Assembly: GCA_951406725.2 (NCBI GenBank)
Contig: OX597831.1
Coordinates: 49,352,001 to 49,416,000, forward strand
Direction of reading: 5' to 3'
Length of the DNA stretch: 64,000 nucleotides
Source: Octopus vulgaris
Lineage: Eukaryota
Shown here piece by piece: positions 17,870 through 44,410 of the stretch. Under the pieces are notes generated by a model. It searched no databases and was not told where the DNA came from. It was given only the letters and a program-made list of their open reading frames with translations. Within the stretch, counting starts at the first letter, position 1; every line of letters starts with the position of its first letter. Both the position numbers and the translations under genes were made by a program.

Positions 17870-17900
<31 letters not shown>

Positions 17901-18081: not shown

Positions 18082-18121
<40 letters not shown>

Positions 18122-18729: not shown

Positions 18730-18748
18730 AGAGCCAAAGAACAAAAGA

Positions 18749-18799
<51 letters not shown>

Positions 18800-19618
18800 G
18801 AACAATCTTACTTAGAAATAGATGCGTGCGTTCCGTCATATAATAAATTGATAAATAAAATAAAACATATGCATATATACATACATATATGCATGTTTAT
18901 ATGCATATGTTTTATTTTATTTATTAATTTATTATATATAAATATGTATGTATGTAACGTTCTACTTTAACCCTTCTCCCACCCTATCGCCTTGATGGCA
19001 AATTATCCTCTCTCATCTCTCCTCTTTCACCTGTTCTGTCTTTATTGCTCATTGTCTTTGACTTTGGCCGAGCCTTTCTTCTATTCTTCTTTCTTGTGTT
19101 GTCCTATTCTTTCTCTATTGTATTTTTCATGTTTCCTTATTTTAATCTCAACTATAAGTTTTAATTTCAATTTTAATTTTAATTTTAAGAATTGTTATAT
19201 TCTTCTTTGACTGTTTGCAATTTCTTATTCTTAATATAATCTCTCTTATTCTGTTTAGTTTTTTACGCGTACCAACAGTACATTGTTTCTGTAAGTATTT
19301 TTTATATAATTTTTTCCATTCAACTATTTTTTATACATCTTTCCCGTTACGGCCAACCCGCCCTTAATACTACTTTACACCGTTATTTCAAAATTGGTAT
19401 CCGTAAGCATTATGTATACTCACAGGTTATATAATTTTTTCTAGTACTGTACATTATCACAACTGCCTGTGAAGTTTCTGAAGTTTTTCTCGCTTCAGTA
19501 AAACAATTTGCTGTATTTCTTTGCTATTCATGTACAATTTTTCTCATTTTGTCTTGCATCTAAATACTTCCTCAAGTCTATGTATGTACATATAAGTTCG
19601 ATATATATACGTACATCA

Positions 19619-19708
<90 letters not shown>

Positions 19709-19798
19709 GCATCTATGTATGTATGTATGTATGTATGTATCTACCGATCTATCTATAGATAGATAGATGTATATGTATATATATATATACATACATAT

Positions 19799-19836
<38 letters not shown>

Positions 19837-20075
19837 TACATATAACTACGCACACACACACATACACATATTAATGTATGTGTATATACATATATGCATA
19901 TATATATCCACACAGACATATGTATCGAACTTGCCATGATGCGCATGCGCTTGCTGTCTTAAAGGTCGCAAAACTGGATGTAGAACGAAATATATTTAAA
20001 GAGGCAGTTCAAGATCACGTTGGTTCATTTGGCGAATTCTCAAAATCGCACTGCCTCTTAACTTAACTCAAAACG

Positions 20076-20106
<31 letters not shown>

Positions 20107-20310
20107 CATACATACATACATACATGCATGCATGCATGCATACATGTGCACACATACACATATATGTATATATTTATATGTATTTATATGTGTATACGTA
20201 TTACCTTATATACATATACATATATGTGTATATATTTATATGTATGTATACATGTATATACATACACATATATATGTATACATACATGTATATAGGTGTA
20301 TATATATGTA

Positions 20311-20392
<82 letters not shown>

Positions 20393-20937
20393 TATATATA
20401 TGTAAATATCTTTCCGTGTATGTATCTATGTATGTAAATATGCATGTATGATCTCTGTGGAAAAACGGATACTTTCTGAGAGCGAATATAGACACAACAA
20501 AATCTAAAAGCTGCAACCAATTGCTATCTGACGCTTTATCGTGTCTTGCATTGATCGTCCATTTTGTAAAATGTAGTAATTTTATTTAACAGCTCAACTT
20601 TCCTATTTCTACAGCTGTCTGTTAATCTCAAGCTTTATGTCTAGCTAAGTAACATATATAATCGGAATGGAAAGTAGCAGACATTATTATAATCAAAGTG
20701 AAGTTATGTCTTTTCTAATATGATTTATTTACTATTGTATTCGCAAGAAAGACACATGCTCACATGTGTATTTATTTATTTATTTATTTATTTAATAATT
20801 TATTTATTTATGTATTTATTTATTTATTTATTTATTTTTTCACTTGTGTCTGCGTGTGTGTTCGTTTATATGTCTAAATATACAACTATATGTGTATATT
20901 TATATATACATACGTGCATAGATACATACATACATAT

Positions 20938-20993
<56 letters not shown>

Positions 20994-21186
20994 TATATTT
21001 TTACACACACACAATATATATATACATATGTATACAATAAGTTTTTAGTGCACATGCATATATATATATGTTTATTTTTACAATACGCATATTGTATATA
21101 TACAGATATATATATATATATTTATATATATGTATGTATATATATATATATATGTATGTAAGTACATATATATATATATACGTATG

Positions 21187-21217
<31 letters not shown>

Positions 21218-21252
21218 ATATACATATATATATATATATGTATGTATGTATG

Positions 21253-21283
<31 letters not shown>

Positions 21284-21404
21284 ATATATATATATATATA
21301 TATATAACGGGAAGCTTTATGAAAATAGACAAAAGACGAAGGCAGGTGGAAAACAAACGAACAATTGTATTAGTATGGCGCTCAGGAAATATAAATAAAA
21401 CAAG

Positions 21405-21441
21405 TCTTTAACGTTTCGAGCCTACGCTCTTCAACAGAAAG

Positions 21442-21442
<1 letters not shown>
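21405..21442 (-). ncRNA. Minimal hammerhead ribozyme motif (core A6 mutated)
   Basis: tcttt CTGTTGA a gagc gtag gctc GAAA CG TT aaaga, within a TA-flanked cassette at 21307-21442. Confidence 0.7.
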
Positions 21443-21490
<48 letters not shown>

Positions 21491-21493
21491 TAA

Positions 21494-21690
21494 GGCGCAC
21501 GCCTTAGTGGTTAGGGTGTTGCAGTCATGATTTTAAAATCGTGATTTCGATTCCTAGACCGGGTGATGCGCTGGATTTACCTTGCTCCAGTCCACTCAGC
21601 TGGCAAAAATGAGTAAACCTGTGACGGGCGGCGCCCTGCATAAAGGGTAAATATATACGCCACAGAATCCGGGGAGACTGGCCCTTAAGA
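21494..21690 (+). mobile_element. SINE family C variant
   Basis: ggcgcacgccttagtggttagggtg..tttcgattcct head; an inverted sister copy lies at 22040-22267. Confidence 0.7.
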
Positions 21691-22039
21691 GACTGGCTCT
21701 TAAGGCCAGTTTCACAAATTCACAAACAAAAACATTCACACACACGCTTATGTCCGTACATATGTATGTATACATTATATATATATCTATCCTTTCTACT
21801 ATAAGCACAAAGCCTAAAATTTTAGAGCAGGGGTCTAGTCGATTATATCAACCCCAGTACTCAACTGGTACTTATTTTATCGACACCGAAAGTGGAAGTC
21901 AGCCTCGGTGGAATTTGAACTCAGAACGTAAAGCCGGAAGAAATGCTGCTAAGATGTTTGTCCGTCGAGTTAACAACCAAGTCTTTTCCACTATAGCCAG
22001 CGCGCCATCTTGGTATGAAATATAAAAGTAAATGCACCC

Positions 22040-22267
22040 TTTTAAAGCCTACCAGGCTCGTGGATTCGGTTTCAATGGCATATGTGTCCCTCTGCTGGAC
22101 GAGACGCCAGTCCATCGCAGCGTTACTAATCTTTTGCCAGCTAAGTGGACTGGAGCAACGTGAAATGAAGTGTTTTGCTTAAGAACACAATGCGACGCCC
22201 GGTCCAGGAATCGAAACCACAATCTTACGATCATGACGCTGACACCCTAACCACTAAGCCACGCGCC
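22040..22267 (-). mobile_element. SINE family C variant
   Basis: ggcgcgtggcttagtggttagggtgtcagc..ggtttcgattcctgg head. Confidence 0.78.
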
Positions 22268-22778
22268 TTCTTGTATGAAATATAATAAAATTTATTCTAT
22301 TACCGCGAGAAAAAAAATGATTCTATCATAAAATGGGTTCGGAAGAAAAGGATTGGTCCGATGGTCTTCACAGACTCTCGGTGGCCGAACAGATCGATGT
22401 GGTTGTACTAGATTACTATTCAAATATTTTTACTTATTTCAATTAAAAGTACAGGAGGAAATATAGATGACTTAGAACTGTTAAGATAATCGAAGTAATG
22501 GAATGTGGACGTGGATTGGACAGGTTGAAAGATGTAAAACATGTTTTTAGTATGGCAATTTGGCTAAGCGCTCTTCAATCCACAGAATACCACCACCAAT
22601 GAGAAATAATGGCATAGACAAATAAATGGACCCCAGTACACGACAGGTGCTTTATTTTATCCTGCCTTCGGTAAAATGAGAAGCAAACATAGGCTCAATC
22701 GGATTTGAACTCAGAATGTATAGGGCCATAACTAAACATCTCCAAAATATTTCGTTCAATGCTTGATGATTCTGTTCA

Positions 22779-22971
22779 TTCTTTTACTCTTTTACTTGTT
22801 TCAGTCATTTGACTGCGGCCATACTAGAGCACCGCCTTTAGTCGAGCAAATCGACCCCAGGACTTTGTAAGCCTAGTACTTATTCTATCGGTCTATTTTG
22901 CCGAACCACTAAGTTACGGGACGTAAACACACCAGCATCGGTTGTCAAGCGATGTTGGGGGGACAAACACA

Positions 22972-23027
<56 letters not shown>

Positions 23028-23196
23028 TATACACGACGGGCTTCTTTCAGTTTCCGTCTACCAAATCCACTCACAAGGCTTTGGTGGTCCCGAGGCTATA
23101 GTAGAAGACACTTGCCCAAGCTGTCACGCAGTGAGACTGAACCCGGAACCATGTGGTTGGTAAGCAAGCTACTTATCACACAGACACTCCTGCGCC
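22779..23196 (-). mobile_element. SINE family A, full length
   Basis: Head ggcgcaggagtg..tggttccgggttcagtc, CORE-like cttgggcaagtgtctt, internal (TG)n, tail (gtaaaaga)n. Confidence 0.88.
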
Positions 23197-24273
23197 TCCA
23201 ACATCATTCAACCTTTCAACGAAAGCTTGCTGTCATTTACAGGCTATCGATTTTCATCAAATCTCCACTTTCATAAAGTTATGGCAATTTGTTCCAAAAT
23301 GAAGATCTGTTGCTGTCTCGCCTCAGGCCAACATACCTAAAATGAAATGCTTTCCAACCATAAGCAAACTTTTTTTAAAATCTCAGGCCTACACTATCCA
23401 ATACGTCGACATTTTAAGGTAATAATATTAGATTTTAGTGAGATAGTTCTACTGTTACAGGCTAAGGAAGCACATGAAAACTTGGTTTCTGAGTTTCATG
23501 AGTTTTGATGCCCACAGGGTCACTTTTTATCGTTGATTCCATCTGGACAGAGATCTGTATTATCTTCCCTGATAACTTTTCTAGAGGAGAAGTTCAACTT
23601 AAAACTGCAATATTATGAATTATTCATAAGATACTCGAATCTTATGAATTATTCATAACTGTAGAGTTAGCATGGTCTACAGCGATGGTCTATTTCTCTC
23701 GGCATTCGGTTCTTCTTGACAAGTAGGTGAACTGAAATATTGATAACAGCCGCATTAATTTGCTTTGTTAGTGTATAGAGCAGCATCGATGCCTTGAGTA
23801 AAAAAGCATTCCTTTTATAACGAGGATATGTCATCAGTGACATGTTCAGTCAGTTTAAAAGAGTGATGGTTATACCTACGTTTCACTCATTCAGATATAG
23901 CCACTTAACTGCTCGTGAAGAGACAGACGAAAAAGAATGATAAGTGAATCATGTAAACTGTGATCATGTAAACTTTATTTTCTTTACGCAAGTTTTTAGC
24001 CTGATATGTAGTTGATTTAATCAAGCCAATATATTACTATTTTGTCAAAGTACCAGAATTTCAATATTTCGAGAAGGTTTCTTTATCAGAAATAAGTAAG
24101 TCTGTAATATAAAAATAGGGTCTATTCTCGAGATCCCTGCTCTCCTTCAGTTTCCACTCATTATATTAGTTATCCGAGGAAGGGCCTTGCCTGACAATGT
24201 TAGAATTATATACTTCCGAAACACAGACATTATCTGCTGGATTTATTTATTCGTAGAACAATCGGTTAAGAGA

Positions 24274-24657
24274 ATGGCAGAAGCGTTAGCACACCGGGCG
24301 AAATGCTTATCGGTATTTCGTCTGCCGCTACGTTCTGAGTTCAAATTCCGCTGAGGTCGACTTGCCTTTCATCCTTTCGGGGTCGATTAAATAAGTACCA
24401 GTTACGCACTGGGTAGATATAATCCACTTAATCCGTTTGCCTGTCCTTGTTTGTCCTCTCTGTGTTTAGCCCCTTGTAGGTAGTAAAGAAATAGGTATTT
24501 CGTCTGTCATTAAGTCCTGAGTTCAAATTCTGCCGAGGTTGACTTTGTCTGTCATCCTTTCGGGGTCGATAAATTAAGTATCAGTTGCATAATGGGGTTG
24601 ATCTAATCGACTGGCTCCTTCCCCCCAAATTTCGGGCAATATGCCCAGAGTAGAAAA
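24274..24657 (+). mobile_element. SINE family B, two nested/tandem copies
   Basis: Two gagttcaaatt..catcctttcggggtcgat units with different tails. Confidence 0.8.
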
Positions 24658-24907
24658 GGATCAGTTAAGAAAATGCTTTAACGAAACTTATTGAATTTTC
24701 TTTAGAATTAAGACTGTTAGAGAAAATAGCTGGGGTACCTCCTTGAAGGATTTTAGTCGAACAAATCGACCCAAGTATTTATTTTTTAAAGTTTAGTACT
24801 TATTCCATCGGTTCTTTTGCCGAACCACTAAGTTATGGGGTTGTAAACAAGCCAGCAGCAGTTGTGAAGCGGAGAAGAGGGGAAACACTAACAGAAAGAT
24901 ATATGAA

Positions 24908-25367
24908 TGGCTGTGTGATAAGAAGCTTGCTTCCCAACCACATAGTTCTGGGTTCAGTCCCACTGCATGGCACCTTTGGAAAGTGTCTTCTACTATAGCG
25001 TCGGGCTGACCAAAACCCTGTGAGTGGATTTGGTAGGCGGAAACTGAAAGAAGCCCGTCGTATACATATATATGTATATATATATATATATATGCGTGTG
25101 TGTGTGTGTATGTGTGTGTATGTGTGTGTATGTATGTATGCATGTATGTATGTATGTATGTATGTACGTATTTGTGTGTCTGTGTTTATCCCTCACCATC
25201 GCTTGACAACGATGTTGGTGTGTTTACGTCCCGTAGTTAGCGGTTCGACAAAAGAACCGATAGAATAAGTACTAGGCTTACAAAGAATAAGTCCCGGTTT
25301 GTTCGACTAAAGGCGGTGCACCAGCATGGGTGCAGTCAAATGACAGAAACAAGTGAAAGAATAAAAG

Positions 25368-25368
<1 letters not shown>
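24908..25368 (+). mobile_element. SINE family A, near full length (with an inverted partial copy at about 24730-24880)
   Basis: tggctgtgtgataag A box and gggttcagtccc B box, body and tail. Confidence 0.85.
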
Positions 25369-25398
<30 letters not shown>

Positions 25399-27475
25399 GT
25401 ATGTATGCATGTATATATGCATGCATTATGTTTGTATGTCTGTATGTATATATATACACATATATATATGTGTATATATACGTATGTGTGTGTGACTGTG
25501 AGTATGTGTGTATGTATATATATATGTGTATGTGTGTGTATGTATATATATATATGTGTGTGTGTGCGTGTGTGTGTGTGTGCATATGTACGACGGACAT
25601 CCACACAGTTTCCGTCTAACAAATTCCTCGCAAGGCAATGGACGGCGGACGCTATAGTAGAAGACACTTATCCAAGGTGCTGCGCAATGGAACTGAACTT
25701 GGAACCACGTGGTTACAAAGCGAGATTCTTAACCACGCAGCAATGCTTGCGCCTATCATTAACTATCTATGAAAGACAGCACGGCGATTGACAAACAGTA
25801 AAAACACCGAACACGCGTCACCGCACTCAACTTTGCTCTTCATATTTTCTGGACCAATAAAATTGCTCATCATAATTTTCGATTTTGTTCTAAATTTTGA
25901 AATCAATATTTTTAACACAGAGTCAGTTGGATAGCAACTTCCTATTACACTTCCTATTACGGCCTGCGTTCTACTCTTGATGGGGATAACTCTGCTTTTT
26001 ATCTGGATCATGAAATAAATATCAGTCGTGTATTGGAGTCGATGGGTTTAATCGGTTCTCTCAGTTCTTAAAATTTGTGGTCCTGCCAGAAATGAATATA
26101 TCATACCAAAGGAGACTCGGTGTTCAGACTGGCTCGCATTATATTTCTTGAAATAATCTATGTTGATTCAGAGACTGGCTTTGAAGTTATTTATCATTGT
26201 GTTAAATACGACCGGTGGTTGTATTTGTTTTACTGGTCCATGAATAAAATATTGCAAGTGAAAAGTGCTAAGTACCACTACCAACTGTTTACATCTAAGA
26301 ATTAACGATAATGTTATGAGTAAACGACCGTAATGTACTGTGATGTTCATATAGTGAGTAACTACTTAAGAAAACTAGAGAGGAAAAAAAAGCTGAGATT
26401 TCACTTGAAAGCAGACAATGTCACGATCATTTAGAATCGATTTCATAGAATCTCTAAGAAGATAGTAAGTTAAAATGTTTACGTTAACTTTTGATAATCT
26501 CAACAGGTTGTTGCGGAGATTTTCTTTTCTATATACTCACAGAAAATGTATGTAGACATTATGACAACACAACCATTTCACATTACGTCGATACAAAATA
26601 AGTGAGAAAGTTTAGGAGACACATTTTGCATTCATTATAACAATATTTATTATTTTATATATCGTATGTCATATAGAATATATTATCTATCATACATGAT
26701 ATAACAAAAATGTTTTATATCAAAATGATTTCTAAAGTTAGCATAGTTTCGTCATCTCCTTTATCTAATTCTCTGTTTTATGTGTCTATGCATTGCAAAT
26801 TAGGCGTCAAACTACCAGCCGAAGTGTTGGTGATTCTTAGTTTGTTGTCATCATTAAAATATCTTCCTAGCTAAAATACTTAAACATCAATTGCTGTGTT
26901 CACCTATCTCTAAATAAGGAGTGCAGATGATATAATTCACCAAATACCAGAGACAGTATCGTTCATTTAATGAGTGAATGTTTTGTGAGTTTGCTGTGGA
27001 AACTACACTGCAACCAGTGAGTAAAGCTGAAGACAATTTTCAGGTGACCTATTCTGGAAAAATATTCAACCAATCAGCTTAACTTTAAATAAATCCCAGA
27101 TAGGAACCTGCCCCTATGAAGCAAATGAAAAAAGAAAAAAAAACGTACTAGTTTTTAGCTATGGATTTATTAAATGAATCAACTAGCTAACACTGAGAGC
27201 AACCAATAAGTGAGTAAATTAATCAGTTCATTCAATAAATGAATAAATAAATGAATTAATAAATAGATAAATAAATCAAGCAATAAATCGATCAATCAGT
27301 TTATCTTTTCCTCAGGCTCAGGCGTTGCTATGTGATAAAAAAAATTTCCTAACAGCAACGAGGTTTTTTTTTTACAATCTCATTCCACTGCAACTTAGGC
27401 AAGTGTCCAACATTAGTCGAACAGACTAATGCCTTGTGAGTATATTTGGTACATAAACTTAGCGGAAGTTCGTAG

Positions 27476-27559
<84 letters not shown>

Positions 27560-27786
27560 AAACACACACACACACAGACACAGACACAGACACACACACA
27601 CGTATATATATATGTATGATAAATGAAAGACGAGAATTTATTGTTAATCACAAGAATCGTTTCGATACATCTAGCATCGATCCCTCACGGGTGGGACACT
27701 AAACAACTGGTTCAGGAGCATCCGGCGGTGTAGATGTGTTTTCAAGGGGTGGTGGGGTGATAAATAGATAAAAGCTTTGATATATA

Positions 27787-29061
27787 TCAGGTCATCACAT
27801 TAGTTCTGTCTGATTTTACCTTTTTTAAAACTGAATGAAATTTAATAGTATTTTAGAATGTCTAATGGAATTAAAAATTATTCTTATGCATTTGTGTGCA
27901 TTTCAACTAATTAAATATTATTTTACAGAATAATAGAATTAAAATTTCTTTGATTAAAACCCTTTCTAACATGAAAGTATCCAAAGAGCATTTGAGGCAC
28001 ATAATGCTTTATGAGTACAGAAAAGGAAACTCTGCAGCCGAAGCGAGTCGAAACATACATTCAGTTTATGGGAAAGAATGTTTGAATTAAAGAACTTGCA
28101 GAAGATAATTTGCAAAATTCAGAAGTGGAGATTTCAGCCTTGAAGATGAAGATCGAACAGGACGTCCAGTTGAGTTTGATGATAATCTCCTTGAGGCATT
28201 ACTTAAAGAAAATCCTGCATTATCAATTGAAGAATTGGCAATAAAGCTTAGTTCAAACCATACAACTGTTCATCGTCATCTTCAACAACTTGGAAAGGTT
28301 CCTAAACTTGGAAAATGGATTCCTCATGAATTGTCCGAAAGCAACTGCAAATCCCGAGTTGACATCTGCCCTTCTCTCCATTCTCGCAAACTCATTTCAC
28401 CCTTTTAGGAAAGACTTGTGACTGGTGACGAAAGATGGATCTTCTATCGAAATGTTAAATGACATAAGCAGTGGCTGAGTAAAAGGGAAAAAAGCTCAAC
28501 CACAACCGAGAAGGGAACTTCATGGGAAAAAGGTTCTTCTCTCTATCTGGTGGGATTGCAAAGGAGTAATTCACTTTGAATTGTTGCCACTTAATGCAAC
28601 AATCAATGCTCAAGTCTACTGTCAGCAATTAGAGCGTTTGAACCAAGCTTTGAAGAAAAAAAAGGTCCGCATAAGTGAATAGAAAAGGAGTGATGTTTCA
28701 TCAGGACAATGCGCGACCCCACACTGCAAAGATCACATCACAGAAGATCGAAGAGCTTGGTTGGGAAAAAATTCCTCATCCACCTTATTCTCCCGACCTT
28801 GCTCCTTCAGATTACCATTTGTTTCGTAGTTTACAGAATCATTTGGGGGACATAACTTTCGCAAGCCAGGAGGAGGTCAAAACTGACATTTCAGAGTTCT
28901 TCGCTTTGAAACCAAAAGGGTTTTACATTGATGGGATGAAAAATCTTGTAAATAGATGGAAGGAAGTCATAGATAATCAGGGAAAGTACATTGATGATTA
29001 AATTTCAATTAAATATTACATTTGATCACGTGTTTATTCAAAATATAGAACTTATGGGATG

Positions 29062-29067
<6 letters not shown>
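27787..29067 (+). mobile_element. Full-length mariner (DD34D) DNA transposon, about 1.28 kb, with inactivated transposase
   Basis: Imperfect TIRs tcaggtcatcacattagttct / agaacttatgggatgacctta flanked by TA. Transposase from ATG 27971 to TAA 29001 has WIPHEL, TGDERW, HQDNARPH and YSPDLAPSD, with 34 residues between the second and third Asp. Confidence 0.95.
27971..29001 (+). pseudogene. mariner transposase pseudogene
   Basis: MKVSKEHLRHIMLYEYRKG... with several in-frame stops and frameshifts in A-runs; only the C-terminal 108 aa remain open (28675-29001). Confidence 0.9.
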
Positions 29068-29124
<57 letters not shown>

Positions 29125-29346
29125 AAATGAAGAAAATGCTGACAAAATAATTTAAGTAATTTAAGTAATTTAATTAGGTGAAGTTCTTTTTACCGGTTGC
29201 GCATTTGTTATGCTTATCAAAAGATTAGGCTTCCAAGCATAACAAATGCGCAACCGGTAAATTACTTAAATTATTTTGTCAGCATTTTCTTCATTTCCTT
29301 TTTTATATATCACAACTCGTGTTCCACATCTCCTTTTTTAAATATA

Positions 29347-29397
<51 letters not shown>

Positions 29398-29400
<3 letters not shown>

Positions 29401-29737
29401 TAGATAAATGGTACAACAAGGCACCGATATTTACTGGAAAATAGCAATCGATATAAATACGACACTATTGAATAGCTTCACTGCGTATATACAAGCAAAG
29501 ACGTGTGTGTGCAACAAACATGAAAAAAATTTGTCTTACCTCTAGGAAGAACATTCGATAAATGGACAACCTAGAATCGGATAATGCAGGACCGGTTTCT
29601 AACTCTTCAAATACATTTGACAACGTAAATTTGATTAGTCTTCATCAGCTGCATTTACCTAGACAAATTTTGAAATGTTGCCACATCAATGCCAGTACAC
29701 TCGTCTGAACGCCAAAACGTTAACAGAACGAGAACAG
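29398..29737 (-). mobile_element. TA-anchored hammerhead cassette, copy 1
   Basis: About 340 bp highly similar to 33313-33650 in the same orientation; starts directly at a (TA)n tract. Confidence 0.85.
29583..29655 (-). ncRNA. Minimal type-I hammerhead ribozyme motif
   Basis: aatgcag CTGATGA [stem II] GAAA CCGG TC ctgcatt: 7-bp stem I, intact core, palindromic stem III. Confidence 0.85.
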
Positions 29738-30428
29738 TGAAGGAGTTTCAATGAAAACAATAATGCAATAGAAATGTATATATATAAAAGCTTTTGTGAA
29801 AATTATTTCATACAGTCACAATAATAAAAGAAATATTATTAGAATATTTTTCATTTAATAGAATTTTTTCTGGAAAAAAGTTTTCGTATATTGTGTATTT
29901 TGCGTCTAGTCTGTAAGCGCTTTGTGTGCAAACGCTTTCGTTATTCAACTTTTCAAACACGCGTGTTCCGGGCTAATGCCTATAAAGGAAGAACTAAACA
30001 CAGTACGCACGAGACATAAAATACACACTATACACAAACTTCTTCAAGAAAGGTTAGTGACATTCTGTTAAATAAAAAGTATGTAGCTAATACTGCTGCC
30101 GCCGCTAATAGCGAATTTTTATTAGGCTTGTCGGCTAAATGCGATATTAGTGACTTTTTAATCTCTGGTTGACTATATACCAGGCAGCGGCCGATTTTGT
30201 TCAGCATTCAGTGCCAATAGATAATTCCTTATGACGAAGCTCAAGAAAGCAGAATAACATATTTGGCAATGCACCATTGAAGGAGAACGATTTTCATCTG
30301 CTACTAATATAAGTCTGTCTTGTTTTACACTATACGTCTATAAGAGATGCATTCTCGGGACGAATGGTGTATTTTACCAGGCTTTCAACAATATACCTGC
30401 CTTAATATGATATACAGATTAGTACATG

Positions 30429-30482
<54 letters not shown>

Positions 30483-30507
30483 CACAAACACACACACACT
30501 CACACAC

Positions 30508-30543
<36 letters not shown>

Positions 30544-30664
30544 AAACACACACACTCACACAGATATACGTATACATGAATATATGCATATGTATACATA
30601 TATATTCATACATATATACATATATGCATGTAAATGAATATATGTACATATACATATACGCATT

Positions 30665-30989
30665 TCAGTCCCACTGCGTGGCAGCTTGGGCAACTGTCTT
30701 CTACTATAGTCTCGGGCCAACCAAAGCCTTGTGAGTGGATTTGGTAGACGGAAACTGAAAGAATCCCGTCGTATATATATATATATGTATGTGTGTGTAT
30801 ATGTTTGTGCGTCTGTGTTTGTCCCCCACAAGATCGCTTGACAACCGATGCTGGTGTGTTTACGTCCCCGTAACTTAGCGGTTCGACAAAAGAGACCGAT
30901 AGAATAAGTCTTGGAGTCAATTTGCTCGACTAAAGGCGGTGCACCAGCATGGCCACAGTCAAATGACTGAAACAAGTAAACAGAGTAAA
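30665..30989 (+). mobile_element. SINE family A, truncated within the head
   Basis: Homology to the other copies. Confidence 0.82.
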
Positions 30990-31166
30990 TATATATATAT
31001 ATATATATATTTAAAGTGCTAAAAAACTATGTGGTTAGCCATATGCCAGAAGTAGATCACCTGCGATCAAACTACAAAGAAAAGAGTGTTCTCTAGAGAA
31101 AAATTCAGCGGACACCAGAACAGTATGTGGGCAAGACAAATGAAAATGATATAAAAACAAGAATTA

Positions 31167-31235
31167 ATCGCAGACCTAGGTTTCGCCTATTAACGAATCG
31201 TAATCGTAATCGTCTGTAGGGCTCGTCAGTACGAT
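31167..31235 (-). ncRNA. Minimal type-I hammerhead ribozyme motif at the 3' end of the Penelope-like element
   Basis: atcgta CTGACGA gcccta..taggc GAAA CCTAGG TC tgcgat. Confidence 0.88.
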
Positions 31236-32465
31236 CGTTCCATAGGTAATATAATTTGTAAAACTAACCACCAGTTTTCCGAATAAAAACAGACACATGC
31301 TTAGTTTCACCGATTACATTAGGTTTAGAACTCAGACATTTGAAATTAGCCCCAATGTAATCAGTGAAACTAAGCACGTGTCTGCTTTTATACGGAAAAC
31401 TGGTGGTTAGTTTTACAAATTATATTACTTTGAAAAGGGCATGTTATAAGTTTTCCATAAACACAATTGTTAGTATGCATGTAGTTTAACTTTTCACTTT
31501 TAGTTCATTTTTGGTGGTTGTAGTTGGCTGTAGTTTTTTTTTCAAAGTTGTTTGTTGAGGAATGAGATAATTTAGTTATTAGTTTGTAGTTCTCGTGGTT
31601 GGGGTGAAAATGTATTTGCAGTAATTTGAAAAATGATATGGCTATTAGTGTGGAGACTAGTATGTTGAAGGGGGATTAACCAGATCATTTTTCTTTTTCT
31701 AATTTTACGTTTTTATTTATTAAGGGAGGTTCGCTGTTTTTGTATATTGCTCTTTTTCCTTGTAACTGCTAATATTGAGAGCTTTGTTCCACAGAGTTGG
31801 TATTTATTTAGTACTTTTTCGATTGAAGATAAAGGAGAAAGTCTTAGATATATGTTCTTTATTAAATATACAAAAATGCTTTTGGAGTGGTTGGATTACC
31901 TATGTATATATCGAATCTTTTTGTTCTCTCCTTTGTAGGGTTTATAAATACTAGATTCAAGGTAAAGGTTAAACATCAAGGAAGTTGATTGATTTTCTAC
32001 TGTAATAGAGAAGCCTAAATTTTTAAAGAAGTAGTGTAGTTCTTTTTTAAATTTATTAGTTTTTGTGGGTTATAGTTTCTTTGTAAGAGTCGATCATCAT
32101 CTCTATATAAACCATCTAAGGCGGATGAAAATTTGCTGTGTAAGTCTTCTAATAAGTAAAAGCCAACAAAGTCGCTTATATTTGCCGAGTACTTAGATCT
32201 CATTCTTACATCAAACGGTTCTTTAGTGTTTTTCTTAATCCACAAAGCATTGCTATAGAAGAGGAGTGATTTTCCTGCTTGTAATATTGCTTTTGTTTTT
32301 TAATGTCGTTTATTGTGGTTATTGTTAGCGAAGTTCAAATCAACCTTAAGAATCGGTTCTGTTATTGATGCGTAACGACCCCATCACAACTGAACCCCAC
32401 ACATCTCGGAAATTTTTTTTATCTCAACAGAAAGTATATTGAGCCAAGATTGATTTGATGCACCA

Positions 32466-32506
32466 CAGTCCGATGATGGCTTAGCTGGCCGAAACTTCAA
32501 AGCCTG
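32466..32506 (+). ncRNA. Degenerate hammerhead-like motif, inverted, at the other end of the Penelope-like element
   Basis: CCGATGA t ggct tagc tggcc GAAA cttcaaag cc; stem II and core boxes present, but UH site and stem I are degraded. Confidence 0.45.
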
Positions 32507-32687
32507 TCAATGCTATTCTTGTTAAGGGATATATATATATATCTATAAAATAATATGTGACAATTATTCGAATAAGTACTCGGCTTACAAAGAATAAGTC
32601 CTGGGGTCGATTTGCTCGACTAAAGGCAGTGCTTCAGCACGGCCGCAGTCAAATGACTGAAACAAGTAAAAGAGTAAAGAGTAAAGA

Positions 32688-32759
<72 letters not shown>

Positions 32760-33242
32760 ATATATGTATTTATGTGTGTGTGTATGTGTGTTTGTATGCG
32801 TGTTTGTGTATGCGTGTACGTAAATATAAAACTCATACAAGCAGATATGCATATAAACTCGCACACAACTGTCTTGAAATATTATGACTTTCGTCTGTGA
32901 TTATAGATTGAAGGAAGCGAACAGATGGTAAAAACACGGTTAACTGATCTATATCTTCACTTCCTTCTTCTAACGCATATCTCTTGAAAACTTTCTAGCG
33001 CGTCTCCAATTGGTGACTACATAAAAACAAACATTTCGAAGAAAGACTAGACAAAGACAAACTTAATAGATTTGAAAGATTTCAATGTTCAAAAAAGAAC
33101 AAATAACTAACAGCGATAAAAAAAATATATATATAGAATAAGTTGACAAATGACAAATTTAAGAGCTGAAATACAAGGAAAAATTAACATATGATGTGAG
33201 AGACAACGTGTAACAGTGAGAAAAAGAGAGAAAGAGAGAGGG

Positions 33243-33312
<70 letters not shown>

Positions 33313-33315
<3 letters not shown>

Positions 33316-33650
33316 TAGATAATTGGTACCACAAAGCACCAATATTTACTGGAAAATAGCAATCGTAATAAATACGACGCTATTGTATAGCTTCACTGCG
33401 CATATTCTAGCAAAGACGCGTGTGTGCGACAAACATGAAAAAATTTGTCTTACCGCTAGGAAGAACATCTGATAAATAGACAACTGGAATTGGATAATGC
33501 AGGACCGGTTTCTGACTCTTCAAATACGTTTGACAACGTAAATTTGATTAGTCTTCATCAGCTGCATTCACCTAGACAAGATTTCAAATGTTGCCGCATC
33601 AATACCAGTATACTCGTCTGAACGCCAAAACGTTAACAGAACGAGAACAG
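33313..33650 (-). mobile_element. TA-anchored hammerhead cassette, copy 2
   Basis: Highly similar to 29398-29737; (TA)n on both sides. Confidence 0.85.
33496..33568 (-). ncRNA. Minimal type-I hammerhead ribozyme motif (sister of 29583-29655)
   Basis: aatgcag CTGATGA a gact aa tcaaa tt tacg ttgtcaaa cgta tttga ag agtc a GAAA CCGG TC ctgcatt; three-segment stem II fully paired. Confidence 0.88.
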
Positions 33651-33717
33651 CCATAATATATATATATAGAGAGAGAGAAAGAGAGAAAGAGAGAGCGAGA
33701 GAGAGAGCGCGAGAGAT

Positions 33718-34168
33718 ACTCTTTTACTCTTTACTTGTTTCAGTCATTTGACGGTGGCCATGCTGGAGCACTGCCTTTAGTCGAGCAAATCGACCCTAGG
33801 ACTTATTCATTGTAAGCCTAGTACTTATTCTATCGGTCTCGTTTGCCGAACCGCTAATGTATGGGGACGTAAACACACCAGCATCGGTTGTCAAGCGATG
33901 TTGGGGGGAACACAGACACACAAACATACACACGCACACACACACACGCACACACACACACACACGCACACACACACACACATATACATACATATACATA
34001 TATACGACAGGCTTCTTTCAGTTTCCGTCTAACAAATCCACTCACAAGGCTTTGGTCGGCCCGAGGCTATAGTAGAAGACACTTGCCCGAGGTGGCACGC
34101 AGTGGGACTGAACCTGGAAATATGTGATTGCTAAGCGAGCTACTTACCACACAGCCACTCCTATGCCT
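33718..34168 (-). mobile_element. SINE family A, full length
   Basis: Homology to the other copies; the head segment is tandemly duplicated at about 34170-34197. Confidence 0.85.
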
Positions 34169-34285
34169 ATACTTACCATACAGCCACTACTACGCCTATG
34201 TGATAGTGAAGAAGTGAAAGAAAACAGGCTTAGATATGAGTCACTGTATTTTATTACACTGCACATGTAGCAGCTGAAGGGATGC

Positions 34286-34358
<73 letters not shown>

Positions 34359-34359
<1 letters not shown>

Positions 34360-34845
34360 TACATTGTTTTGTCTTGATATAAAAGATGGGCTACAGCAAA
34401 TATTCTGCTCAATACCACAGATTTGCTTGTCAGTTGTTTGACCTTAACCAGTTGAGCATGTCCCTTAGTGGCTGACGATATGTGCATCTCTGATCACGAG
34501 CAGAAGTAGTGGGGGAGCATCATAGCCATGTGTTGAGAGGGATTCTTTGGGGTTTGAATAATTCACCTCTGGAAACATGGGTGGTTCTTTCAACATCCTT
34601 AAACAACCCTTATTCAGGGACCTTTCGAGCGGGATGGGCTACTCAACCTGAAGAAAATTCTAACTGGGCCCCACCTGCAAGGTCATGTGCTGTTTATCTT
34701 GATATGAGATCACCATGTCGCGCACATATGGTTGTGATGCATGTGCCTGGTGTACCATTATCAGACGGGTAGTCATGATGGGTATATTGGGCTTCGTATA
34801 TTTTATCCCAGTGTCACTTTGATGGCATGCACTGCTCTCTCACTC
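34359..34845. mobile_element. Interspersed element of about 490 bp inserted inside an (AAT)n tract
   Basis: GC-richer block with sharp edges and long (AAT)n on both sides; no convincing ORF; family not identified. Confidence 0.6.
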
Positions 34846-34883
<38 letters not shown>

Positions 34884-35105
34884 CAGTTTCAAATTTTGGC
34901 ACAAGGGCTGCAATTTTAGAGGAGGGAACACTGGAGGTCGATATAATCGATCTCCAGTGTTCAACTGGTACTTATTTCATCGACCCCGAAAAGAAGAAAG
35001 GCAAAGTCAACTTCGATGGAATTTGAATTCAGAACGTTTGCGACAGGCGAAACACTGCTAAGCATTTCTCCCAGTGTCCTAACAATTCTGCCAACTCACC
35101 GCCTT

Positions 35106-35188
<83 letters not shown>

Positions 35189-37838
35189 ATAATAATAATT
35201 CTTTTTTGCTGTAGGCACAAGGGCTGGGGAAAGTAGAGGAGCTTGTCGATCATATCAACCCCAGAACTTAACGGGTGCTTATTTCATAGCTCTCTCCCAC
35301 AGAAGATGAAAATCAAAATTGACCTCTGTGGAATTTGAACTCAGAAAGTAAAGACGGAAGCAATGCCACACGTGCTAATGGTTCTGTCAGATCGCTGCAT
35401 GTTCAAGTATAATACAGCCAACAATCAATCACCAATAAGTATGGATGGTTTGGTTGCATGTATTATGCTTTCGCGATATTTGTTCTGGCTGGATGTGCTG
35501 TGAGTTTAAATCCCACCAAGGCCTTCCGTTCTTTTATGGTCAATACAATTTATAACCAGTCGAGGGAAATGAACTGACAGAAGCTTGAGAGCCTTGGACT
35601 AGATAGCATGCGCTATTTCTGCTCTCAATGTTAGACTTATGTGGTAGACCAAAATCGGTTGCCCGCCACTGGGTTTTGGGTAACTGTAGCAAGCATTCAA
35701 ATCATGTCTTCGGTAAGAAGATAATTTTTTCCCTTTATTTAAGCAACCTCGATGACCCTTAAAATCTAAAGGATCGTATTTGTTGCACTTCCTTTTTTGA
35801 CTAAACAGTAAGAAAAAAATAAAAGAATAAAAATCACTCAAACACCCACATATCCACAACCATAAATATCACTTACTAGCTTTATTAATAGTTTTTCTAA
35901 TACTGGTTTCAAATTGTGGCAGCGATGTCGGAGGAGGGGCTAAGTCGAATAATTGACACCAGTGCTCAACTGGTACTTTTTTATCCACCCCGAAAGGATG
36001 AAAGGTAAAGTCGTCCTCTGCGGAATTTGAACTCAGAACATAAAGACAGCGAAATGCCGCTAAGCATTTTGCCCGGCGTACTCACGATTCTGTCAACTTG
36101 CTGCCTTCAAAGGATTTTCTAATATTGGCCCAGTACTCCACTCAAAGAAGAATATTGTAAATTGAATCTAGCTCTGCTCGTGTCTATTGTTTTAAAATTT
36201 TATCTCAGATCGACGAAATGATAAATCAACACTGACAGGATTGGATCTCACCACGAAGAAAAACGACTTGTTTCTTATCAATGTGATTATTTGCCACGAA
36301 CTAGTGGCATCCATACTTTTCTTTCCAAGCCAGTTAGTCGCAGCCCAAGAGAATTGGTTTAATATCTCACGAACTCTTTTTGCAGGATGTATATTTCTTG
36401 CCGTTACAAGATCTGTTTCTTTTTACTTCGTACACATGCATTATATATTAATGGAAGAGAAATTGAAGTTGTGATATTTTAAAAGGTATATAGTGGTAAT
36501 TGAGTGCGTGGGCTCCAAAGCTTATTTGAAGCTACGCGTCCATCTGAGTTGCCTTGAGTATCGTTTGAGTTATTACTACAACGATGATATTGGTTATAGC
36601 TCCAGGAAAGCACACATCTAATAGACCGATAATGAAAAGCTTTCTAGCCATGACTATTCGACTGTTATTTCGTGTACAGTATAACTAGGTTTCTGTTATG
36701 CAATATCTCCTGCTTGCTGTTAAAAGATTAGGGTCAAATTTGATGGTGATTTTGCTGTATTGATTTGCAAGTTGAGTGACCGCATGAAGATTTCCTCATC
36801 GATTCGTAAATAATCTTTTTTTTTTTTAAGGAAACTTTGAAATCTTTTGTAAATGAATCATTAGTGGTATGGTTGATTGAAGAGACCCTAGAACATTACT
36901 GGTTCTTACTCTAATGATTTCAGAAGTGGCATTGCAAACACATATTCTAGACAGCTTGTTAGATAGATTGAGGGAGAGAGAATCAATAATGTATTGAATT
37001 TAGTTTGACGCTTGCTGTTTCCGTTGCACTGAATGTTATACAACAAAATAATACAACAAAAAAGATTCTGACATAAGATAATATTACTAACTCTTTTGTT
37101 TGCAGTAAAGACAAATACCACTAGAAGAATGTTAACTAACCCATAGAAAGCAAAGCAACGTACATTACTTGACAAAATCTGTTTCATTGGAGACAATCAC
37201 TTCTATACATTTTAATGTGTATCACGCACTCAAAATTAATGGAGCTTTTAGTTCTCTAACACGCAATGCGATAAAGACGCTATCTACATAAATTATTGTC
37301 TAAAAGTGCTCTTCAGAAAAAAAGGCTTTTTGCTCTGTATTTATGGGTGTGTCCATACAAATGCGAATACATACGCACACACATATTCGTGTAAACACAT
37401 ACATATTTTGTACACTCACATATCCCCAACCCCCACACATAAATATATGTTTGCAGTTGATAACTGTTTGCGTCAATGCAAAAAAAAAAAAAAAAAGAAA
37501 CCCGCCAGTAAAAAGCTACACGGCTGTTATTCGTAAACCTTTGTTTGAAATATTGGCTAAGCAAACAGTTTAAAGAGATTTCATATACTTGAAATTGTTT
37601 ATACTATGTTAGGATTTCGTCTAAGTGGAACTCGAAATCCCATATGTTCTTCATTTATTTGTAAATATCGAAATGTCCCCACCCAGCCTGCCAATAGATC
37701 AATGCGGCTGAACACCCATAAATTGTGAGAGGGAATCAACGGAATATGCTTATTAGTCTAATCTTTTATGTAACTGATTTATTGCTGACGGTATTAAGTT
37801 TGACAACTTCATTATTTTGTGACAGCTGGATTGTAGCA

Positions 37839-38678
37839 ATACATACATACATACAAGCATACATACATGCATACATACATACATACATACATACATGCAT
37901 ACATACACACAAGCATACATACATACATGCATACATACATACATACATACATACATACATACACACAAGCATACATACATACATACATACATACATACAT
38001 ACATACATACATGTACATACATGTACATACATACATACATACATACATACACACAAGCATACAAACATACATACATACATACATACATACATGTACATAC
38101 ATGTACATACATACATACATACATGCAAGCATACATATATACATACATGCATAATACATACACACAAGCATACATACATACATGCATACCTACATACATA
38201 ATACATACATACAAGCATACATATACACATACATACATACATACATACATACATACATACATACATACATACATACATACATACATACATACATACACAC
38301 AAGCATACATACATACATACATACATACATACATACATACACACAAGCATACATACATACATACATACATACATACATGTACATACATACATACATACAT
38401 ACATACATACATACACACAAGCATACAAACATACATACATACATACATACATGTACATACATGTACATACATACATACATACATACATACATGTACATAC
38501 ATGTACATACATACATACATACATACATGCAAGCATACATATATACATACATGCATAATACATACACACAAGCATACATACATACATGCATACCTACATA
38601 CATAATACATACATACAAGCATACATATACACATACATACATACATACATACATACATACATACATACATACATACAT
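37839..38678. repeat. (ACAT)n satellite with a higher-order duplication of about 404 bp
   Basis: The variant block acatgcaagc..catacctacatacataatac occurs at 38121 and 38525. Confidence 0.85.
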
Positions 38679-39271
38679 AAATGTAGCCTTTTGCTTGCAT
38701 ATAAAAACTTTTTCACACACACATACACTACACTCACACATACACTCACCCACAAACGCACCCACATATATGTAGTCTGTATTACTAATCGGCATTGTAA
38801 CAATGGTCTGTAACATGAGTCCGAATTATGGTTTGTGAAGATTTTTCAAGTTCAATAAAATAGTATACACACACACGCACACACACGCGCTCAAATACAC
38901 ACACACTCACATTTATATATATATAACAGAGTTATTAGTGAGTGATTATCAATCCGGGCAAAATACTTTATAAGCTCTCTGTTATTACACCAGACTAACA
39001 ATATTATTTTGATTAGTACAGAATTCCATATATTCTTGAGGCAGGGCCCGAGCTTATAGTTCATCACCATTCTATATTGAAAACATATGCCTATGTTCCA
39101 GTTATACAGGATTTTAAACAGTGTGGTATACAAGGCAACCTGTACCCAGTAGTCATTATAGGTTCAGACCTATGACTACTGGTAACGGATGTAAATCAAA
39201 TTTGTTACGATAAAGAAAAAATATGTAATGGTCATTATTTGGACGTTGTCTATATTATATCATACCATCCC

Positions 39272-39327
<56 letters not shown>

Positions 39328-39332
39328 TATAC

Positions 39333-39772
<440 letters not shown>

Positions 39773-39802
39773 AATATACTATATTAATATATATATATAT
39801 AC

Positions 39803-39852
<50 letters not shown>

Positions 39853-40031
39853 ACACACACACACATATATATATATCACCGTGATCACCGTGACCGACCA
39901 GGTTATCAGATGTTGCTACACATCGCTGGTCACAATGCGCTTCGCATTGTTTTAGCCTTCAAATGACGCCACCCCGCTGGCTAAGCGAGCAGGCCAATAT
40001 ATATATATATATAGACATATATATATAGATA

Positions 40032-40085
<54 letters not shown>

Positions 40086-40208
40086 AACACACAAGGTATA
40101 AATGAAGGTCATTTGGGATTTATGTAGGTTCAAAGTTGGGAAAAAACAGGACAGTGGAGACATACAAGGAAACCGAATGAAAACACACACTCATACACAC
40201 ACACACGT

Positions 40209-40242
<34 letters not shown>

Positions 40243-40653
40243 GTATATCACCGGTGTAAGCAGTTGGAGCACTGCGAATCTAACGCGTACTTTGTTCTTT
40301 ACTTATACTGAGTTCACTTCCACAAGAAGAAAAAGGGTATCTGCGATAGGCTAACTTTCTATTCGATGGAGTGAAGAAACAAGATTTATCTGTCAGTCGA
40401 TTAACGTACTGGAATTCGTTGGTAAAGCTGCACAGTAGCCATTTTGACCCCTGTTCTTCAGATTTAGATTTATTTTAATTTCAATTCAAACTTCAATAAT
40501 TGGTGCAAGTGTGATTATCCATATCAAGTTTCTTTACAAAATAAAAATCACGACGTCTTTTCCTACTTTACTGAATTGATTTTGATTACAAAAATATATC
40601 TATGCCTTTTATCTGAAGCCAGATTCGGAAACTATGACAAAAGGAACCAATTA

Positions 40654-40710
<57 letters not shown>

Positions 40711-41507
40711 CTGCCAATACAAAATTCCTACCGCTTTATATAAATCAGTCTTTCACGTAATCAATATTAACGAGCCAATAACGTAAGCAATTTTATTCAT
40801 TTTTTCATATAATGTTATTCTAATTAGAATAGGTAGGTTATATATCAGTTCATTTAGGATTCGGCATCTTTCTTGCACAATCAATATTTAATTAGCGTAG
40901 CAATGGCTATATGTCTCTCTCTATTTCTCTCTCTCACACACACACACATACACATATGTAAGTATGTATTATGTATTTAGCATATATTTTACATTCACAC
41001 CACGCTACACATCATACATTCAGTTAGAGAAAATATTCATATCAAAGCTGAATATATATATATATATATGATTGGATTGTACAATGCAGTGAACTAAAAA
41101 GTGACAATATTTGCTGAATAATCAGCTCAAAAGCGTTGTGCTACGTTAGTATATAACGAAGTGTCTTCAATCTTGCTACTACCAGTTTTAGCTTAACAAA
41201 ACATGCATGTGTGATATACCAATATGTATGTACGTATATACGTATGTATGTATGTATGTGTGTGTGTATGTGTGTGTGTATGAATTATGTATGTGTGTGT
41301 GTATGTATATATGTTGTTATTTCGTAAATGTAAGGTAAATGTATGTATAATTATGTATATTTTTTATTTATGATTTGGTTTGTGTCTACCATTGTTTGAA
41401 TTGCATAATAGTGGTTCTTCTCTAATTTATATACTATATATTTATATTGTGAAATTTGATTTAATACTAAATTGAATTTTTCCCTGTAAGTTTGGAGTTA
41501 TACTCCC

Positions 41508-41538
<31 letters not shown>

Positions 41539-41542
41539 ATTA

Positions 41543-41693
<151 letters not shown>

Positions 41694-41990
41694 TACGTAA
41701 ATTTAAGATATATCAGTATAAGTTTTATTAGGTCACTGTGTTAATGCAATAGGATATGATATAATAATCGACTTTCGTATATATATGATATCGAGTCGAC
41801 TGAGTACCGAACGAACTAATCAAGAGATCAACGGTTTGTCTCGCATCACCGCTTTGTGTAGCGTATTTGTAGCTCTTACATTACTAAGACAAACTCCAAT
41901 TGTTCTCAGAAGGAAAGCTCTTTTGCTGAGAGTGGTAGGTTTTCATCAACAGAGTTTTGTCTTTCATTCGTTTTACCGACAGAAGTTATA

Positions 41991-42499
41991 AACATAAGGG
42001 ACTAAAGCCATCTGAATATGGCTAGGGACAGGGCAGGGTGGTGGGGGTGTTACTGTTGCATTTAGCCCCAGGCGAACATCAACGTCGCCAGATAGGCTTG
42101 ACACCATCACGGCGTCCTTTATCCTGCAAAGGGAGATAATTCCCCGATGAAGCGGAAACCACACACGGACCCAGGTTTCAAGGTGTATTGCCTATCATCA
42201 ACGTGTGGTAGGCCCCCGCTTCCTCGACGAAATCTCACTCTGCAGGATATTTATATATAGATTTTCAAGCAAAATACATTTGCTGATTTCGAAAATCTGT
42301 TCGACAGCAATAATAATTCTCTAAATGAGATATAGACAGTAACTGCTCCATAACATAAGGGACTAAAGCCATCTGAATATGGCTAGGGACAGGGCAGGGT
42401 GGTGGGGGTGTTACTGTTGCATTTAGCCCCAGGCGAACATCAACGTCGCCAGATAGGCTTGACACCATCACGGCGTCCTTTATCCTGCAAAGGGAGATA
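41991..42499. repeat. Exact 148-bp direct repeat pair (41991-42138, 42352-42499)
   Basis: Base-by-base identical by eye; 213-bp unique spacer. Confidence 0.92.
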
Positions 42500-42847
42500 G
42501 GCTTCAATGAATTTGTGATTCGGAAAACAAACAGAAAGAAAAAAATGGAATTCGTGTTACAAAAGTGGAATAAATGTAGCTGGACATGATAACGACAGTG
42601 TTTTAGGAACGAAGATGATATCCATCTTTCGATGCACAAAACATAATGCTGACAATGCCGATGATTAAAAGGAGCTTAATGTTGTCTCGGAGGAGGAGGA
42701 GGTTGATTATGATCAGGGTATGACGAGGAAGTGAAGAGAAGCAGATAATCGATGAGAAAAAAGCAGATAAGTTGATGAGGATCACGAGGACTATGATGTC
42801 AATGATTACAGCGGAGAGAGACAGTAAAAAATATGTAGCAGCTTCCA

Positions 42848-43293
<446 letters not shown>

Positions 43294-43513
43294 AATAAAG
43301 GCATGTGGCCAACTTAAAGTAAAAGGTACGCTCTTTTGTTTGTTTTGGCTGAGAGTCGTAGCTGGTCGTTGAAGTACGGTATCATCTGTCAACCAAGGAT
43401 TCATGGGTTTCCCTAGTAAAAAGGTACGCCGTGAAGTATTTCTAATCTTACCACAAGGCCAGCAATTTGGAAGGCAGGGCGATATTCAATTACACCGAAT
43501 CCTGTAATTGATT

Positions 43514-44174: not shown

Positions 44175-44205
<31 letters not shown>

Positions 44206-44410
44206 CACACGCACACACACATATATATATGTGTGTGTATATATATATATACGACGGGCTTCTTTCAGTTTCCGTCTACCAAATCCACTCACAAGGCTTC
44301 GGTCGGCCCGAGGTTATAGTAGAAGACACTTGCCCAAGGTGCCACACAGTGGGACTGAACCCGGAACCATGTGGTCAGTAAGCAAGCTACTTACCACACA
44401 GCCACTCCTG
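43514..44410 (-). mobile_element. Two tandem SINE family A copies (43514-43949, 43966-44410)
   Basis: Two complete head-body-tail units in the same orientation. Confidence 0.85.

Follow-up and report, generated by a model that had tools for sequence, protein, structure and literature searches.

Do two hammerhead motifs that lie 3.9 kb apart in one intron act together as a dimeric ribozyme on the pre-mRNA that carries them, or are they passengers left there by a mobile repeat? The question is raised by a 64,000-nt stretch of the Octopus vulgaris genome (assembly GCA_951406725.2, contig OX597831.1, positions 49,352,001 to 49,416,000; hereafter the window, whose own numbering is used unless another contig is named). 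On its minus strand, the window carries a gene of two coding exons for a G protein-coupled receptor (GPCR; Pfam 7tm_1), the nearest solved structures of which are the vasopressin V1a and oxytocin receptors. The intron of this vasopressin/oxytocin-type GPCR (13182..46616, minus strand, 33.4 kb, GT..AG, phase 1), read in the sense of the pre-mRNA from 46616 to 13182, contains all the elements listed for it here, among them two direct repeats, copies A and B, which are 91.2% identical over 340 bp and are situated 13-17 kb away from either coding exon. Two cassettes of about 340 bp, in the same orientation and sense to the receptor, are thus present in one intron just as the original prediction described them. 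As to what they are, we consider it quite probable that A and B represent two passenger insertions of a repeat resembling the non-long terminal repeat (non-LTR) retrozymes, likely acquired independently in two (TA)n tracts and likely decaying neutrally.

Copy A (29398..29779, minus strand) and copy B (33313..33650, minus strand) are both solo and 5′-truncated, retaining about 380 of 430 nt and 338 nt, respectively. The fixed 3′ end of each abuts its own (TA)n target tract (29342..29398 for A and 33249..33313 for B), the 5′ end of A abuts a short (TA)4, and beyond the (TA)n the flanks of the two copies are unlike each other. Each copy contains a predicted type I hammerhead, sense to the receptor pre-mRNA (hammerhead A, 29583..29655; hammerhead B, 33496..33568; both on the minus strand), and the two share an identical layout, composed of a 7-bp stem I, CUGAUGA, an A on each side of helix II at positions 10.1 and 11.1 (A/A), an extended helix II, GAAA, the ACCGGU palindrome and GUC. 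The minus strand of both reads AATGCAG-CTGATGA-...-GAAA-CCGG-TC/CTGCATT, with the cuts predicted between 29590 and 29589 in A and between 33503 and 33502 in B. The consensus elements CUGAnGA, GAAA, U16.1 and H17 are present in both, and the earlier description of the hammerheads as intact is accurate for the CUGAUGA/GAAA core, the 7-bp stem I, ACCGGU and GUC; it fails at 10.1/11.1, where the consensus usually has G-C, its best-conserved pair, so that neither motif is fully canonical. At the gathering score, Rfam returned no match in the window, in which CTGATGA by itself shows no enrichment (5 matches versus 8.5 expected), and which contains at least eight hammerhead-like motifs and 65 long (TA)n tracts.

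Both copies belong to a large family. A search of the same genome with copy B yielded 1627 candidates on many contigs, and among the 40 that were scored, at least 22 other copies outscore A. Exact patterns for the core plus the start of helix II, the 5′ flank and the 3′ flank matched the genome 136, 180 and 234 times, respectively, and a capture-recapture estimate from the core and 5′-flank lists, based on a hand-counted overlap on contigs 1-11 (73, 95, 11 shared), puts the family at about 1,170 copies. The 3′ end, examined at 30 loci, is fixed and runs into (TA)n in 22, into the next unit in five and into other simple sequence in three, while the 5′ ends are variable and often inverted. When traced 5′, long copies rejoin their own 3′ end after about 430 nt without reaching an open reading frame (ORF), and unit ends are joined to unit starts in many loci, which makes the cassette a non-coding, head-to-tail unit; this is a trait of the family, A and B themselves being solo and truncated. 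In a natural tandem, L159, the two hammerheads lie 429 nt apart, the GC content is 35%, and the unit folded as a circle has a predicted z-score of -5.9 relative to 40 shuffles, a value that applies to this one natural unit. Contigs from four sequencing runs (not on record as RNA) that aligned to copy B contain the family together with one head-to-tail joint; ends and strand are not readable from them.

At the family level, these features coincide with those of non-LTR retrozymes in the type I hammerhead of each unit, the short non-coding head-to-tail unit, and the low GC content with a self-paired predicted circle. Judged by sequence, the family appears to be a further member of these known elements, with a Penelope-type footprint. 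The metazoan non-LTR retrozymes (PMC7229834; bioRxiv 2026.07.22.740005) are likewise small non-coding units (150-450 bp class) of low GC content with one type I hammerhead each and a self-paired circle, and they, too, are dispersed as solo monomers, often intronic (44% of the X. tropicalis copies in their data), and linked to the pseudo-long terminal repeats (pseudo-LTRs) of Penelope elements. The octopus copies differ in being mostly solo or in partial tandem, in having a fixed 3′ end in (TA)n, 5′ inversions, a long extended helix II and, in the clade of A and B, A/A at 10.1/11.1; their cleavage and circles are predictions only. The main text of bioRxiv 2026.07.22.740005 mentions no cephalopod.

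As for the enzyme that might have moved such a unit, the genome contains Penelope-like ORFs that are intact, reach 962 aa and encode both YRDD and CxCX5C. Two intact Hydra-type examples of about 960 aa are found at L205 and L206 (G000:C8 21.32 Mb; C5 142.95 Mb), and the identical scores of many loci suggest a recently active family. Hydra-clade Penelope-like elements are reported to target (TA)n, to possess the CxCX5C linker and hammerheads in every family, and to insert in tandem and inverted arrangements (bioRxiv 2021.04.23.441226), a likeness that suits both the Penelope remnant located between A and B and the likely mobiliser, whereas the cassette itself is without an ORF and unmatched at all the intact ORF loci examined. 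A single locus (L217:1506-2039; G000:C7, about 22.038 Mb) has a 74% homolog of the 3′ half of the unit directly abutting the start of a Penelope-like ORF. It is a candidate trace of a parent pseudo-LTR, in line with the origin from Penelope pseudo-LTRs to which retrozymes have been tied (bioRxiv 2026.07.22.740005). At 36 other Penelope ORF loci the unit had no match, and a strict hammerhead pattern had none near the intact Penelope ORFs, so no autonomous partner was found there. Given the single L217 case and these 36 loci, the mobiliser is one that we infer: a Penelope enzyme of Hydra type would copy the unit from RNA that is multimeric or circular, the partnership being indicated by the end features and one locus.

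The original prediction had further proposed that A and B bracket the Penelope remnant in the manner of pseudo-LTRs, and that the remnant has a hammerhead of its own. The remnant (31430..32420, minus strand) derives from an old, broken, Penelope-like reverse transcriptase, putatively of Hydra type, with YRDD, the CxCX5C linker being found in its relative L063. Its best genomic relatives are 72-74% identical, and it matches intact ORFs with CxCX5C at E 8e-20; these genomic ORFs provided the identification, as Pfam did not recognize four short fragments of the remnant. Adjoining it is an inverted terminal piece of its own family (32420..32530, plus strand) with a decayed hammerhead that is antisense to the pre-mRNA (CCGAUGA at 32470, GCC in place of GUC), and the same piece also lies beside the ORF in L063 and L181 (inverted) and in L183 (direct, upstream). 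The intact hammerhead at 31229 turned out to be part of something else, namely a second high-copy hammerhead repeat unrelated to A and B (31011..31428, minus strand; body 31011-31327, 5′ inverted arm to 31428), which ends in its own (TA)n. A genome search with that repeat gave 1746 candidates, the 40 scored being mostly 85-89% identical, and the spacing of partial matches suggests a unit of about 550 nt. Its motif, the third hammerhead in sense orientation (31167..31235, minus strand; predicted cut between 31173 and 31172), has CUGACGA, an intact G10.1-C11.1, a ACCUAGGU palindrome and a 2-bp helix III. Because its palindrome and stem I differ from those of A and B, it would not complete either of them. 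It may be the best monomer cutter in the intron, though with a weak predicted fold in its sequence context. Among 19 other loci examined for the remnant and the 31229 family, one contains a full cassette.

The relationship between A and B points the same way. They differ by 8.3%; in a set of 42 copies in which B-like ones are over-represented, the median is 7.4%, and at none of 30 columns in this set do A and B have a non-majority base in common. B ranks 32nd of the 41 neighbours of A, and the nearest neighbours of A are found on other contigs, 3.5-3.9% apart. In a tree of 83 flank-chosen copies together with A and B, A groups with L178, L111 and L108 from other contigs (support 0.98), and B joins five other copies (support 0.78), both groups falling within one 11-leaf clade (0.97). 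What was said of the two as sisters is therefore true of the clade, and untrue of their sub-branches and derived bases. On the 3′ side of copy B, about 700 bp of unrelated DNA and then a repeat come after the (TA)n, with no ORF start. Since the sub-branches are different, each copy has a (TA)n end to itself, and unrelated DNA lies between, A and B do not bracket the remnant as pseudo-LTRs. To regard them as the pseudo-LTRs of a single remnant-holding Penelope insertion, or as the ends of one local duplication, would account for their common orientation around the remnant and common A/A clade, and would agree with the unit homology upstream of a Penelope ORF at the one other locus; it has to contend with the absence of common derived bases, the dissimilar flanks, a copy B that runs into (TA)n rather than the 5′ end of an ORF, and a remnant family that is far older and equipped with a different terminal hammerhead. 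We regard this explanation as very improbable and, on the sequence comparisons, as largely refuted.

If A and B were inserted separately, they might still meet in the transcript. The double-hammerhead geometry proposed for them is borne out in silico: the stem I arms and the palindromes are identical, and the RNAcofold minimum for the pair is a double hammerhead, at -46.1 kcal/mol for the isolated motifs versus -40.5 kcal/mol for two monomers. The predicted pairing probability of stem III in the monomer is 0, and the motifs are predicted to combine the features of a dimer-type hammerhead: helix III is palindromic and not stable within a monomer, and stem I has its match in the partner. In the family, two neighbouring units, 430 nt apart, would supply the halves of a dimeric hammerhead. 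With a 30-nt linker between the motifs, the predicted gain of the dimer is 0.9 kcal/mol. When 4.15 kb with a copy at either end is folded, the 5′ half of B is paired with the cut strand of A in the minimum, and the full dimer lies 2.4 kcal/mol higher; with about 1 kb added on each side (6.1 kb), the A-B pairing is gone. Folding models undercharge long loops. Moreover, the minimum-energy fold of the natural tandem L159 is not a double hammerhead, and since a natural dimer does not fold as one at its minimum, such folds cannot rank activity either way. On the pre-mRNA, either copy would at first adopt a local monomeric fold that is inactive, and B, transcribed 3.9 kb before A, may have closed its stem I locally by the time A appears; an exchange of strands over the 3.9 kb would be possible, though likely rare, slow and unselected.

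Hammerheads of Penelope-like elements offer a close parallel (PMC4209133). As in the octopus, their small palindromic helix III needs a second copy, helix II is long, an extra base follows A9, and copies are single or a few kb apart; theirs reside in the pseudo-LTRs of one element and have G10.1-C11.1 abutting the core, whereas the octopus pair likely stems from separate insertions and has an extra A before G12 as well. An accidental but real long-range ribozyme would arise if the two independent copies sometimes exchanged stem I strands via ACCGGU and cleaved the nascent intron at one site or at both, in the latter case releasing a 3,913-nt piece, without selection being involved. This scenario is compatible with the cofold minimum, the long-range half seen in the 4.15-kb fold, the intact sense motifs, and the natural Penelope repeats in which hammerheads can be about 3 kb apart (PMC4209133). 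It must be set against the small gain at 30 nt, even before the cost of a 3.8-kb loop, the loss of pairing in the 6.1-kb fold, and the lead of B in transcription with its chance to self-close. Furthermore, Penelope hammerheads in dimeric and trimeric form showed poor cleavage in vitro (PMC4209133), one of nine Xenopus retrozyme dimers cleaved (bioRxiv 2026.07.22.740005), and a mismatch at 10.1/11.1 usually lowers hammerhead activity, U-U least (PMC3088659). Taken together with the models, this makes long-range cutting at the locus unlikely in our view.

The original prediction also stated that the cores had been kept while their surroundings drifted. Relative to the family, copy A carries 7 private changes and copy B 12, over 326 sites each, and none of these 19 falls in the 82 of 652 sites that belong to the two hammerheads, a weak hint that does not reach significance (P about 0.08) and is subject to selection bias, as the pair came to notice through being intact. 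One apparent core difference of A was traced to mutations in two of its three neighbours. For the comparison across genomic copies, which had been named beforehand as a refuting test, we used 92 matches of a pattern located 5′ of the hammerhead, from which 7 aligned over <250 nt and 2 second units of one insertion were removed, leaving 83. Singleton changes amount to 9/908 in the core (0.99%), 27/3144 in core plus stems and 149/15952 in the flanks (0.93%), with P values of 0.86 and 0.76, and the core, the palindrome and 5 bp of stem I are retained in 47 of the 83 copies, which are thus as intact as A and B. As read from these changes, the rate of core decay after insertion is that of the flanks, i.e. 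neutral, which contradicts the expectation of a core better conserved than its surroundings; selection at one particular locus would escape such a family-wide test.

Between subfamilies, the picture is different: core sites vary at 0 of 11 positions versus 28 of 217 in the flanks, and in the stems 8 of 26 pairs have changed on both sides. The covariation score was reached by none of 500 shuffles and was far lower in slid controls, with the proviso that the 30 motifs used are related and were hand-picked to span subfamilies, so the shuffle control is not a probability. The constant core and the covarying stems imply that selection acts on the replicating element. Could it also act for the host? 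In amniotes, intronic type I hammerheads in sense orientation have been domesticated (RECK and others; PMC6155905), and by this precedent the octopus pair might be a regulatory ribozyme selected to tune the receptor mRNA, a notion to which the unusual closeness of the copies and the lack of private changes in their hammerheads lend some colour. The amniote examples are single-copy and conserved across classes, whereas A and B are young, as their few private changes attest, high-copy and without significant excess conservation; P is 0.08 in a pair picked for its intactness, 47 of the 83 flank-chosen copies are equally intact, and the sites are far from either exon. We consider domestication extremely improbable.

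The A/A at the base of helix II is not confined to this pair. Positions 10.1/11.1 are occupied by A-U in 45 of the 83 copies, G-U in 14, A/A in 10, A/C in 6, G-C in 4, U/U in 3 and a gap in 1, and exact patterns recover 85 copies in which 11.1 is A and 218 in which it is a pyrimidine; the A/A clade has gained an extra pair at the far end of helix II. A mismatch at the same place, U-U, is found in the weakly cutting axolotl HHR_Amex2 (PMC7229834). Just upstream of the first coding exon of the receptor, the window contains an inverted pair of a different hammerhead repeat (48780-48875, minus strand; 49225-49335, plus strand; motifs at 48870 and 49228), which is unrelated to A and B and has 5,257 exact pattern matches in the genome. 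By hand count, 91 of the 100 matches listed have a purine at 11.1; by eye, 14 of 20 motifs have an A after the heptamer, the core is often CCGAUGA, and A or G mostly precedes GAAA. This purine layout in an unrelated family weakens the view of A/A as a simple lesion, and from the sequences, A/A may be a tolerated, slow variant. A bolder version holds that hammerheads whose helix II is flanked by an unpaired purine at either side (CUGAUGA-A-helix II-A/G-GAAA) are a variant that is active in nature and used by at least two unrelated high-copy families, and that A and B assemble over 3.9 kb and cut the nascent receptor intron, as a ribozyme made by chance from two insertions; we hold this to be quite unlikely. 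Literature searches, supplements aside, turned up no publication that deals with hammerheads of cephalopods or with A/A at 10.1/11.1, and the supplements of PMC4209133 and of the bioRxiv papers may show such. Two further motifs were seen in the window: an old 67% relative of the cassette at 57506-57736 (plus strand), with G10.1-C11.1, a CUAG/CUAG stem I and a ACUCGAGU palindrome, and a minimal Penelope-type hammerhead at about 53247 (minus strand; CUGACGA-A-GAGC/GCUC-GAAACGUU).

Several observations weigh against two independent, neutrally decaying insertions, one of them being distance. Of the 85 copies that have A at 11.1 and retain the 3′ half intact, A and B form the sole pair 0.5-15 kb apart, for which a hand calculation expects about 0.005. 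Under uniform placement, 1,200 copies should yield about one same-strand pair no more than 3.9 kb apart, and the 136 exact-core copies 0.013. The closeness of A and B exceeds uniform chance. To this we add the membership of both in one minority clade (10 of the 83 copies), the hammerheads free of private changes together with the blindness of the family-wide test to a single locus, the limits of the hand-picked covariation set, the favourable energy of the isolated dimer and the half-formed dimer at 4.15 kb, and the 36 Penelope ORF loci without a match to the unit. Placement itself is clumped, as seen in a same-strand cluster of the family on contig 6 and in the many long (TA)n tracts of the window, and the 100 matches listed for the 5,257-match family include two pairs on the same strand, with spacings of 2.0 and 4.2 kb. 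In the contig 6 cluster (L139, G000:C6:71051500-71054800, and C6:71055141), same-strand insertions lie within about 3 kb, and two of them are separated by unrelated DNA. Other near pairs were rejected as precedents: the C18 series at 46.2 Mb consists of segmental duplications (L082-L085, G000:C18 46.19-46.23 Mb, are four duplicates of about 10 kb with one repeat copy in each), the C16 pair appears to be a fragment that was duplicated locally, and the C11 and C5 pairs each belong to one insertion, tandem or inverted.

The remaining features of the region are repeats of other kinds. An interspersed repeat, present in the window many times over and labelled a short interspersed nuclear element (SINE) in the original prediction, occupies 30664..31013, and a second piece of the same repeat occupies 32570..32828. 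At 28675-28998 (plus strand) lies a fragment of a DDE transposase (Pfam DDE_3, below the cut-off), which we take to be mariner-like, followed by a short inverted repeat near 29150-29300.

As things stand, the locus adds one more retrozyme-like family to a genome rich in them, and the near pair within the receptor intron is probably incidental. The spread of the A/A layout in this clade, together with the purine layout of the unrelated 5,257-match family, would mean either that an active hammerhead variant is missed by current search patterns or that these elements spread despite a weak ribozyme. If it is true that separately inserted, dimer-dependent hammerheads can meet over kilobases, clustered insertions would create new cleavage sites in the pre-mRNAs of repeat-rich genomes, which may be a possible route to domesticated intronic ribozymes.

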